Assembly (NCBI RefSeq): GCF_003334335.1
Contig: NZ_QOWQ01000222.1
Strand: one strand, 5' to 3'
Length of the DNA: 300 bases
Source: Escherichia coli
GTDB lineage: Bacteria > Pseudomonadota > Gammaproteobacteria > Enterobacterales > Enterobacteriaceae
In this document: positions 2 through 299 of the stretch, in pieces
How positions within the stretch are numbered: position 1 is the stretch's first letter
How the letters are laid out: the number at the start of each line of letters is the position of its first letter
Program-made: the position numbers and the translations under genes
The notes under the pieces: generated by a model
Seen by the model: the letters and a program-made list of their open reading frames with translations, nothing else
Told to the model about the DNA's origin: nothing
Database searches by the model: none

Positions 2-77
2 TGGTGGGTCGTGCAGGATTCGAACCTGCGACCAATTGATTAAAAGTCAACTGCTCTACCAACTGAGCTAACGACCC
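2..77 (-). tRNA. tRNA-Lys (anticodon UUU), complete, 76 nt with encoded CCA
   Basis: The reverse complement of 2-77 reads GGGTCGTTAGCTCAGTTGGTAGAGCAGTTGACTTTTAATCAATTGGTCGCAGGTTCGAATCCTGCACGACCCACCA. It folds by hand into a canonical cloverleaf: acceptor stem GGGUCGU/ACGACCC, D-arm GCUC-AGUUGGUA-GAGC, anticodon stem GUUGA/UCAAU with loop CUUUUAA (anticodon UUU, complement of + 42-44), variable loop UGGUC, T-arm GCAGG-UUCGAAU-CCUGC, discriminator A, then CCA. It matches the E. coli-type tRNA-Lys sequence as I recall it. Which lysT-family paralog (lysT/W/Y/Z/Q/V) cannot be told from this window, so no symbol is given. Confidence 0.95.
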
Positions 78-111
78 ATACGGGTGTTACCTGAAAGATT
101 TTTACTCGGGG

Positions 112-128
112 CCAATCTTTAAGATTGG
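112..128. other. 17-bp perfect palindrome CCAATCTT-T-AAGATTGG overlapping the orphan CCA end
   Basis: + 112-119 ccaatctt is the exact reverse complement of + 121-128 aagattgg, with a single central base (t120). As RNA it could form at most a 6-bp stem with a 5-nt loop. A third copy of the motif, aaagatt at + 94-100, can pair with aatcttt at + 114-120 instead, so two mutually exclusive pairings exist. Confidence 0.55.
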
Positions 129-143
129 TGGGTCGTGCAGGAT
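126..143 (-). repeat. orphan tRNA-Lys 3'-end fragment (tRNA positions 59-76: AUCCUGCACGACCCACCA), third copy of the tRNA 3' terminus
   Basis: + 126-143 (tggtgggtcgtgcaggat) is identical to + 2-19 and + 224-241, i.e. the last 18 nt of the tRNA including CCA. The flanking base 125 (t) also matches position 1. Identity stops abruptly at 144 (g, versus t at position 20), which is inside the T-loop, and nothing resembling the rest of a tRNA lies upstream of it. Confidence 0.85.
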
Positions 144-168
144 GACTCGCTTCGCTCGCCCTACGGGC

Positions 169-184
169 CGTTGCTGGCGCAACG
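169..184 (-). other. inverted repeat / predicted RNA hairpin, 6-bp stem and 4-nt loop
   Basis: + 169-174 cgttgc is the exact reverse complement of + 179-184 gcaacg; the loop is 175-178 tggc. It sits in the GC-rich centre of the spacer and no U-tract follows. Confidence 0.5.
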
Positions 185-197
185 TTATCCTTCACGC

Positions 198-220
198 TTA
201 ACATCTGAGTTTGATGTTAA
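198..220 (-). other. inverted repeat / predicted RNA hairpin, 8-bp stem and 7-nt loop, starting 3 nt downstream of the upstream tRNA's CCA
   Basis: + 198-205 ttaacatc is the exact reverse complement of + 213-220 gatgttaa; the loop is 206-212 tgagttt. In the minus-strand transcript this is UUAACAUC-AAACUCA-GAUGUUAA. The stem is AU-rich (6 of 8 pairs) and no U-tract follows on either strand. Confidence 0.6.
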
Positions 221-223
221 AAC

Positions 224-299
224 TGGTGGGTCGTGCAGGATTCGAACCTGCGACCAATTGATTAAAAGTCAACTGCTCTACCAACTGAGCTAACGACCC
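224..299 (-). tRNA. tRNA-Lys (anticodon UUU), complete, 76 nt with encoded CCA
   Basis: Positions 224-299 are 76/76 identical to 2-77, checked base by base, giving the same cloverleaf; the anticodon UUU is the complement of + 264-266. The 5' end is at 299 and the CCA is encoded at 224-226 (as tgg on the + strand). Only one base of 5' flank (300) is visible, so the upstream neighbour is unknown. Confidence 0.95.

Follow-up and report, generated by a model that had tools for sequence, protein, structure and literature searches.

The spacer between two tRNA-Lys genes of the Escherichia coli lysT tRNA operon holds a short perfect palindrome, one arm of which carries the CCA of an isolated tRNA-Lys 3' end, and this raises the question as to whether the palindrome is a site in DNA or a structure in RNA. 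The window, by which we mean the whole 300-nt stretch that was analysed, reads on its minus strand as lysY, a 146-nt spacer and lysZ of E. coli K-12; the sense strand of the operon is thus the window's minus strand, and the two tRNA-Lys(UUU) genes found on it by ARAGORN and Rfam are identical (Table 1). The operon has cpoB and nadA as neighbours, and a single lysT promoter drives all seven of its tRNAs, which are transcribed as one RNA (Agrawal, Mohanty and Kushner, PMC4176162). The repeat search returned an inverted repeat at 112-119 / 121-128 (CCAATCTT / AAGATTGG) whose arms are 100% complementary with 1 nt between them, so that the 8+1+8 palindrome with the orphan CCA in its right arm was correctly located in the preliminary description. 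Read in the sense direction the CCA occupies 128..126, where it ends the orphan tRNA-Lys 3' end and starts the 5' arm of a hairpin. We propose, with a probability of roughly 55%, that this is the K-12 allele of a conserved stem-loop in the lysT primary transcript that caps a CCA end, an inferred masking of the RCCA motif being included in that figure.

Table 1 Features of the 300-nt window, in window positions
Feature	Position	Strand	Sequence or remark	Basis
tRNA-Lys(UUU) lysY	224..299	-		ARAGORN, Rfam
RtT-type repeat, 98 nt	126..223	-	RF00391-like body + orphan tRNA end; absent here in CFT073	RtT model
Second perfect 8-bp hairpin	198..220	-	UUAACAUC-7 nt-GAUGUUAA; 5' end of RtT insert	repeat search, folding
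Orphan 18-nt tRNA-Lys 3' end	126..143	-	AUCCUGCACGACCCACCA; 3' terminal direct repeat of insert	repeat search, RtT model
CCA-capping hairpin	112..128	-	sense RNA CCAAUCU-UAA-AGAUUGG	repeat search, folding, covariation
Native lysY-to-lysZ spacer, 48 nt	78..125	-		comparison with CFT073 and orthologues
Alternative partner for hairpin 3' arm + loop	91..100	-	sense AAUCUUUCAG	repeat search
tRNA-Lys(UUU) lysZ	2..77	-		ARAGORN, Rfam

Folding of the minus-strand spacer, a check suggested at the outset, gives a 7-bp stem with a 3-nt loop at the palindrome in both the MFE and the centroid structure, and the hairpin 112..128 by itself has a dG of -6.0 kcal/mol. The local hairpin persists in the MFE and centroid of the full lysY-spacer-lysZ RNA, a fold that is uninformative on long-range structure since the identical tRNAs mispair in its MFE. 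When the 146-nt spacer was dinucleotide-shuffled 5000 times, 64 of the shuffles (1.3%) contained a perfect inverted repeat with arms of 8 nt and a loop no longer than 10 nt; the real spacer holds two. The second perfect hairpin (220..198) begins 3 nt past the genuine lysY CCA, and its stem recurs unchanged in the lysW copy (K-12 operon locus 2276-2305; loop GAAGACA vs AAACUCA).

The Rfam RtT model RF00391 matches 292..126 on the minus strand with 54.4 bits against a gathering score of 45, and the match stops exactly at the orphan CCA, only 126-128 of the palindrome lying inside it. Five RtT matches of 46.7-60 bits are present in the K-12 operon, one behind each tRNA-Lys, and every one of them terminates in CAUCCUGCACGACCCACCA, which repeats the final 18 nt of tRNA-Lys. 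At the lysY site the 98-nt insert (223..126) is composed of a 79-nt body, a junction C at 144 and the 18-nt tRNA-end copy, positions 126-143 being identical to 224-241 in the repeat search. Six more E. coli genomes were compared with the window, and all five RtT-type segments (K-12 operon locus 1985-3200) proved to be presence/absence polymorphisms, each flanked by direct 18-nt copies of the tRNA-Lys 3' end. The lysY site is occupied in K-12 and O157 and vacant in CFT073; the latter has 0/5 of the segments and operon spacers of 35, 2, 51, 3, 48 and 33 nt. Duplication or deletion between the direct repeats is the simplest account of this polymorphism. Because CFT073 is without any of the five, the RtT(Lys) elements are dispensable, and their dispensability as indel polymorphisms constrains ideas on RtT element function.

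In CFT073, whose lysY-lysZ spacer measures 48 nt, AUUUUAAACAUUGGUUCCGAG... comes straight after the genuine tRNA-Lys CCA; as this is the same sequence, the native lysY trailer accounts for 14 of the palindrome's 17 bases. In K-12 the palindrome is thus made up of 3 nt from the end of the repeat and the first 14 nt of the native spacer, which complete the hairpin, the remainder of the native spacer being the conserved block CCGAGUAAAAAUCUUUCAGGUAACACCCGUAU that forms the 5' leader of lysZ. As the repeat lies between lysY and the native spacer in K-12, the hairpin caps the orphan CCA, and the genuine lysY CCA is not the capped one.

RtT RNA and the RtT repeats of the tyrT operon were reportedly described by Bosl and Kersten in 1991. 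The lysY site resembles that family (RF00391) in two ways: the orphan CCA supplies the final three bases of an RtT-family repeat, the model ending at 126, and the repeat finishes, as in tyrT with its tRNA-Tyr, by copying the adjacent tRNA's 3' end, CCA included. It differs in that 14/17 of the palindrome bases fall in the native spacer and so beyond the RtT element, and the hairpin is also found at sites free of RtT; the repeats of the tyrT operon have instead a small palindrome, ACUUUCAAAAGU, 2 nt behind each CCA, with the CCA excluded. The tyrT repeats are also cited in PMC3318445, and PMC4176162 describes no stable RNA species released from the lysT operon. The RtT core AACGUUGCnnnAGCAACGnCCCGnAGGGCGAnnCG... 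is common to the Tyr (tyrT-tyrV-rttR, locus 780-1740) and Lys operons, and the copies end in the 3' end of their own neighbouring tRNA (CCUUCCCCCACCACCA in the Tyr operon vs CCUGCACGACCCACCA in the Lys operon), a pattern that needs explaining, for instance by target duplication or local conversion. In the K-12 operon the fifth RtT copy (locus 3008-3205) stands behind the lysQ terminator and in front of an identical duplicate of it; the direct repeat at this copy measures 54 nt (tRNA end plus AUGUAAAAAAGCGCCCUAAAGGCGCUUUUUUGCUAU), the empty form of the site is present in O157 and CFT073, and within the copy there is a piece of the tRNA-Lys T arm in inverted orientation (GATTCGAACCTGC).

The preliminary description had taken the orphan end for a possible relic of integration, and one half of this idea stands, namely an indel-polymorphic repeat between direct copies of a tRNA end. 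As at att sites in tRNA genes, a direct repeat of the tRNA 3' end, 18 nt long and reaching 25 nt in O157-type strains because both junctions run on as AUUUUAA, flanks a strain-variable segment, and the orphan copy lies against the native trailer in the manner of an attR. The other half, a mobile carrier, did not hold. The insert is only 98 nt long and no integrase gene adjoins the operon, whose neighbours are those named above; searches with the RtT element plus spacer against phages and plasmids matched only chromosomal-type or mis-filed records. Five such inserts in one operon are likewise unlike tRNA-gene att sites, and att core-type repeats were rejected for the palindrome, which is for the most part outside the repeated segment and whose arm spacing is variable.

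In order to follow the palindrome beyond E. coli, one genome per species was scanned with a palindrome-blind pattern (orphan end + 25-55 nt gap + tRNA-Lys 5' end), yielding 60 loci from Enterobacteriaceae, Erwinia, Photorhabdus and Xenorhabdus. From the scan and the E. coli loci, 32 distinct lysY-type trailers of about 20 genera were recognised by the block CCGAGUAAAAAUCUUUCAGGYAACACCCGWAU, 24 of them behind an orphan end and 8 behind a genuine tRNA-Lys. A contiguous stem of 5-9 bp from the first C of the terminal CCA is present in 30/32 trailers, each of the 30 stems with p <= 0.036 against shuffles of its own variable part. The stem pairs C74-C75-A76 in 32/32 and A73 too in 24/32, and the loops vary from 3 to 9 nt. 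The arms CCAAUCUU / AAGAUUGG of K-12 are replaced by CCAAUUU-U-AAAUUGG in C. koseri and Pseudocitrobacter, CCACUUU-A-AAAGUGG in E. cloacae, CCAAUU-UCG-AAUUGG in K. oxytoca, CCAAU-UUCG-AUUGG in K. spallanzanii, CCAUC-UAAA-GAUGG in Kluyvera georgiana and CCAUC-UUUA-GAUGG in Salmonella diarizonae, and C. amalonaticus has a 9-bp stem with a 9-nt loop. An enterobacterial-type arrangement of tRNA-Lys, RtT and trailer was also seen in CACSKA010000002.1, labelled Chryseobacterium sp. 18061, an assembly that is probably contaminated or mislabelled.

RNAalifold run on an unfitted MAFFT alignment recovers the CCA-anchored helix, with 84% of alignment cells paired as compared with 12-51% when the partner is slid. 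Both-side changes amount to 13 cells (shuffle mean 2.9) and the covariation score to 0.174 (0.057 in shuffles); neither value is reached in any of 500 shuffles, a control that is uncorrected for phylogeny. A structure-anchored tally gives AU 20, CG 4, UA 4 and GU 2 at the first variable pair and UA 23, UG 3, CG 3, AU 1 and GU 1 at the second, and G·U/U·G cells number 12 vs 1 for A·C, meaning that G·U is tolerated on the sense strand only. When the same anchored-stem test (score >=5) was applied to other trailers, 61% of the long Lys-to-Lys class had such a stem, and the proportion was far lower elsewhere (lysZ-to-lysQ type 2%, Lys-to-Val 8%, terminator trailers 5%). Unconstrained substitution of the arms had been named beforehand as the outcome that would speak against any role, and what we find across the 32 orthologous trailers is compensatory substitution. 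Variable loops, compensatory changes and strand-specific G·U together indicate an RNA hairpin of the sense transcript and not an operator or recombinase core, and its position behind the genuine tRNA-Lys CCA in the insert-free CFT073, Salmonella diarizonae, Pseudocitrobacter and C. amalonaticus shows that it is part of the native trailer and not of an integrated element. We consider 112..128 very probably to be a selected RNA hairpin of the native trailer.

Could such a hairpin arise without function, from an AT-rich trailer beside a fixed CCA, by template-switch quasi-palindrome mutation and through shared ancestry? The stem is short and AU-rich, the mismatch allele of CFT073 is common, RtT insertions shift the hairpin off the real tRNA with no obvious harm, and the shuffle controls are, as noted, phylogeny-uncorrected. 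A by-product of this kind is nevertheless improbable given at least 3 independent double substitutions at the first variable pair, a loop insertion in Citrobacter with the stem kept and lengthened to 9 bp, the 12 to 1 asymmetry of G·U over A·C, and the rarity of the stem in neighbouring trailer classes (2-8% vs 61% in the long Lys-to-Lys class).

The same data bear on the suggestion that the palindrome looks more like a dimeric-protein operator or the core-type inverted repeat of a site-specific recombinase, left as an att relic, than like an RNA hairpin. A perfect palindrome with a 1-nt centre is found in K-12, C. koseri, Pseudocitrobacter and E. cloacae, and it adjoins the direct repeat of a tRNA 3' end that bounds the indel-polymorphic insert. 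The one-base centre, however, exists because the U and A that end the UAA triloop happen to be complementary; it is limited to a few lineages, the hairpin loops of most genera being without self-complementarity. Both the sequence of the half-sites and their spacing vary among orthologues, with loops of 3 to 9 nt and arms that change by compensatory substitution, the palindrome is present at empty sites, and a T·G allele carried by 31% of E. coli genomes breaks the symmetry of the DNA and keeps the pairing of the RNA. To this can be added that no integrase lies nearby, that no true phage or plasmid carrier was found and that there is no promoter-like site to regulate, no sigma-70-like site being present on either strand of the window. 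A DNA-level site is thus extremely unlikely and already largely refuted.

An operator was rejected on the orthologue arms, which differ (CCAATCTT, CCACTTT, CCATC, CCAATT and others) and lie 3 to 9 nt apart, and an intrinsic terminator at the palindrome on finding no minus-strand terminator-like site there, the stem having 3/7 G-C pairs and being followed by CCCCGAG. Two terminator-like sites do occur on the plus strand, antisense to the operon, at 81-103 and 169-194 (0.3 expected in shuffles), one of them being the complement of the RtT hairpin AACGUUGC/GCAACG, and these are probably incidental.

Within E. coli, exact-word searches distinguish three alleles by the sixth pair of the stem. The perfect palindrome of the K-12 allele (C-G, -6.0 kcal/mol) occurs in about 2400 genomes, the O157-type allele (U·G, -3.4 kcal/mol) in 1686 genomes (31%) and the CFT073-type allele (U·C, with a 5-bp stem left and -1.5 kcal/mol) in 1065 genomes (about 20%). 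The outgroup Escherichia sp. E1V33 carries U·G, so that the perfect palindrome is probably a derived, strengthened state (U·G -> C-G), and the constrained part of the hairpin is its outer five pairs.

In the lysT operon RNase P alone separates the tRNAs, 3' end first and moving 5'. RNase II and PNPase then shorten the long lys trailers, which RNase T finishes; the long spacers, including lysY-lysZ, are cut by RNase E only with RNase P inactive, long 3' trailers result in poor RNase P cleavage, and the authors suggest secondary structure of the transcript as a possible delay to processing (PMC4176162). A covarying hairpin that buries RCCA is a concrete, mutable element that may bear on the 3'-end-first order of RNase P on the lysT and valU transcripts. 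RCCA is the motif with which, according to Kirsebom and Svard, RNase P RNA pairs through its P15 loop. Where the insert is missing the hairpin caps the genuine lysY CCA, burying A73-C74-C75-A76, which is the RCCA motif that the P15 loop would read. As it buries this motif, the most specific reading is that RCCA stays masked until the downstream RNA is removed: the buried 3' end would escape recognition until the downstream transcript has been cut off and the trailer trimmed, which may be one source of the 3'->5' order reported for RNase P in this operon, and on the orphan copy the hairpin would keep a decoy RCCA silent. We regard a link between hairpin and processing as plausible and an RCCA-masking function specifically as a tentative possibility, somewhat on the doubtful side. 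Against a strong claim of masking, the stem is weak (-6.0 kcal/mol in K-12 and -1.5 in CFT073) and about 20% of genomes carry the U·C mismatch allele. The native lysW trailer also buries its CCA (CCCACC/GGUGGG) and the native lysT and lysZ trailers do not; since only some trailers of the operon do so, the hairpin cannot be a general cause of directionality. A rule that every CCA of the operon is capped was rejected, the enrichment being specific to the long Lys-to-Lys trailer and, in part, to the RtT 5' ends.

Alternatively, selection may have kept the hairpin for other nucleases, as a stop or pause for RNase II/PNPase or as a means of positioning the back-up cleavage by RNase E. The covariation data apply equally here, the enzymes concerned are those that trim the lys trailers (RNase II/PNPase, then RNase T) or cut the lysY-lysZ spacer without RNase P (PMC4176162), and a conserved AU-rich block, GAGUAAAAAUCUUUC, proposed as a single strand for RNase E, follows just downstream of the hairpin. 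We think this unlikely, as it leaves the exact anchoring of the stem on C74-A76 in 32/32 trailers unexplained, and the stem is too weak for a lasting block to an exonuclease, for which the acceptor stem already provides a stop.

Among known structures the CCA-capping hairpin is closest in kind to the stem-loops of polycistronic E. coli pre-tRNAs, whether in trailers or in spacers, terminator hairpins and ITS/3'ETS elements among them, being a short hairpin right behind a tRNA 3' end in an operon processed by RNase P, and the valU trailer likewise has an ACUAC/GUAGU stem directly past its CCA. In the other trailers examined the stems mostly begin past the CCA, whereas here the CCA, usually together with A73, is itself the 5' arm, and this use of the CCA is maintained by covariation across genera. 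That spacers of tRNA operons can be functional RNAs is illustrated by the 3'ETS-leuZ sponge, as cited in PMC10455298. As far as the searchable literature shows, the hairpin has not been described before and falls into the ordinary class of pre-tRNA spacer/trailer stem-loops, with an unusual CCA 5' arm; 112..128 is a small ordinary spacer structure and not a protein or recombinase site.

The orphan end invites a second comparison. An external guide sequence for RNase P, as reportedly set out by Forster and Altman in 1990, consists of a complementary strand plus 3'-RCCA. The orphan ACGACCC-ACCA is alike in being exactly complementary to GGGUCGU of the downstream tRNA-Lys and then ending in ACCA. 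It is unlike such a guide in acting in cis and not in trans, as a candidate pairing only, and in that the hairpin would hide its RCCA and the orphan strand is mutated in several strains. The acceptor strand of the orphan, ACGACCCA (129-136), is perfectly complementary to the lysZ 5' end, UGGGUCGU (71-78), 50 nt downstream, and RNAalifold pairs the orphan GACCC with GGGUC of lysZ, the columns involved being invariant. Several E. coli strains carry point mutations in this strand at the lysY site (ACGACACACCA, ACGACAUACCA, ACGACCUACCA) with the CCA and the hairpin intact, and an exact-word search places a mismatch near the orphan acceptor-strand position in about 1400 genomes. These point mutations suggest weak constraint on the orphan itself, or possibly selection against its complementarity to tRNA-Lys. 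A bolder proposal, that the CCA-capping hairpin is a programmed RCCA mask in operons separated by RNase P alone, which would make a tRNA or a guide-like orphan usable only after the downstream RNA is removed, is in our view quite unlikely; if true, it would be a sequence-encoded explanation of the lysT 3'->5' processing order.

It had also been proposed that the 3' arm can pair in two mutually exclusive ways, and for K-12 this is borne out. The repeat search finds a second inverted repeat with arms at 91-100 / 114-123 that are 9/10 complementary, the corresponding fold has a dG of -6.6 kcal/mol, 1.2 kcal/mol higher than the MFE at -7.8, and when the duplex was tested sequence by sequence against shuffles of the downstream part, K-12 scored z = -2.6, better than 98% of shuffles. 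The alternative is not conserved, however, the duplex test over the 32 trailers having a mean z of -0.1 with K-12 as the only sequence below -2. On alignment A1 the alternative helix has 80% paired cells, although the AU-richness of both partners already brings slid controls to 55-60%. The fold is confined to Escherichia and one Kluyvera (Kluyvera georgiana) and absent from Enterobacter, Klebsiella, Citrobacter and Silvania. A conformational switch, in which the 3' arm would alternate between the CCA arm (128..121) and AAUCUUU (100..94) and so hide or expose the CCA, could draw on the small energy difference, the duplex score of K-12 and the pairing on alignment A1; given the slid controls, the single one of 32 sequences below -2 and the genera in which the fold is missing, we hold it to be very unlikely.

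Other pairings of these spacers were noted in passing. Within the native spacer the sense sequence CUUUCAGGU (89-97) has a nine-base perfect complementarity to ACCUGAAAG of RyhB (K-12 ryhB), for which the a priori chance with one sRNA is about 1%. The predicted RyhB duplex had very large interior loops and only the direct 9-nt complementarity was relied upon. Escherichia, Citrobacter, Kluyvera and Salmonella retain the motif, and Klebsiella and Enterobacter do not. Spacers of other tRNA operons are known to act as sRNA sponges, and a putative pairing of RyhB with the lysY-lysZ spacer is only a lead. In the valX-valY spacer (locus 428-476), CCACUU at valX is complementary to AAGU|GG, made up of the last four spacer bases and G1 and G2 of valY, and a similar spacer-closing pairing, CCAUCU...AGAU|GG, is found in the Lys-Lys spacers of Photorhabdus.
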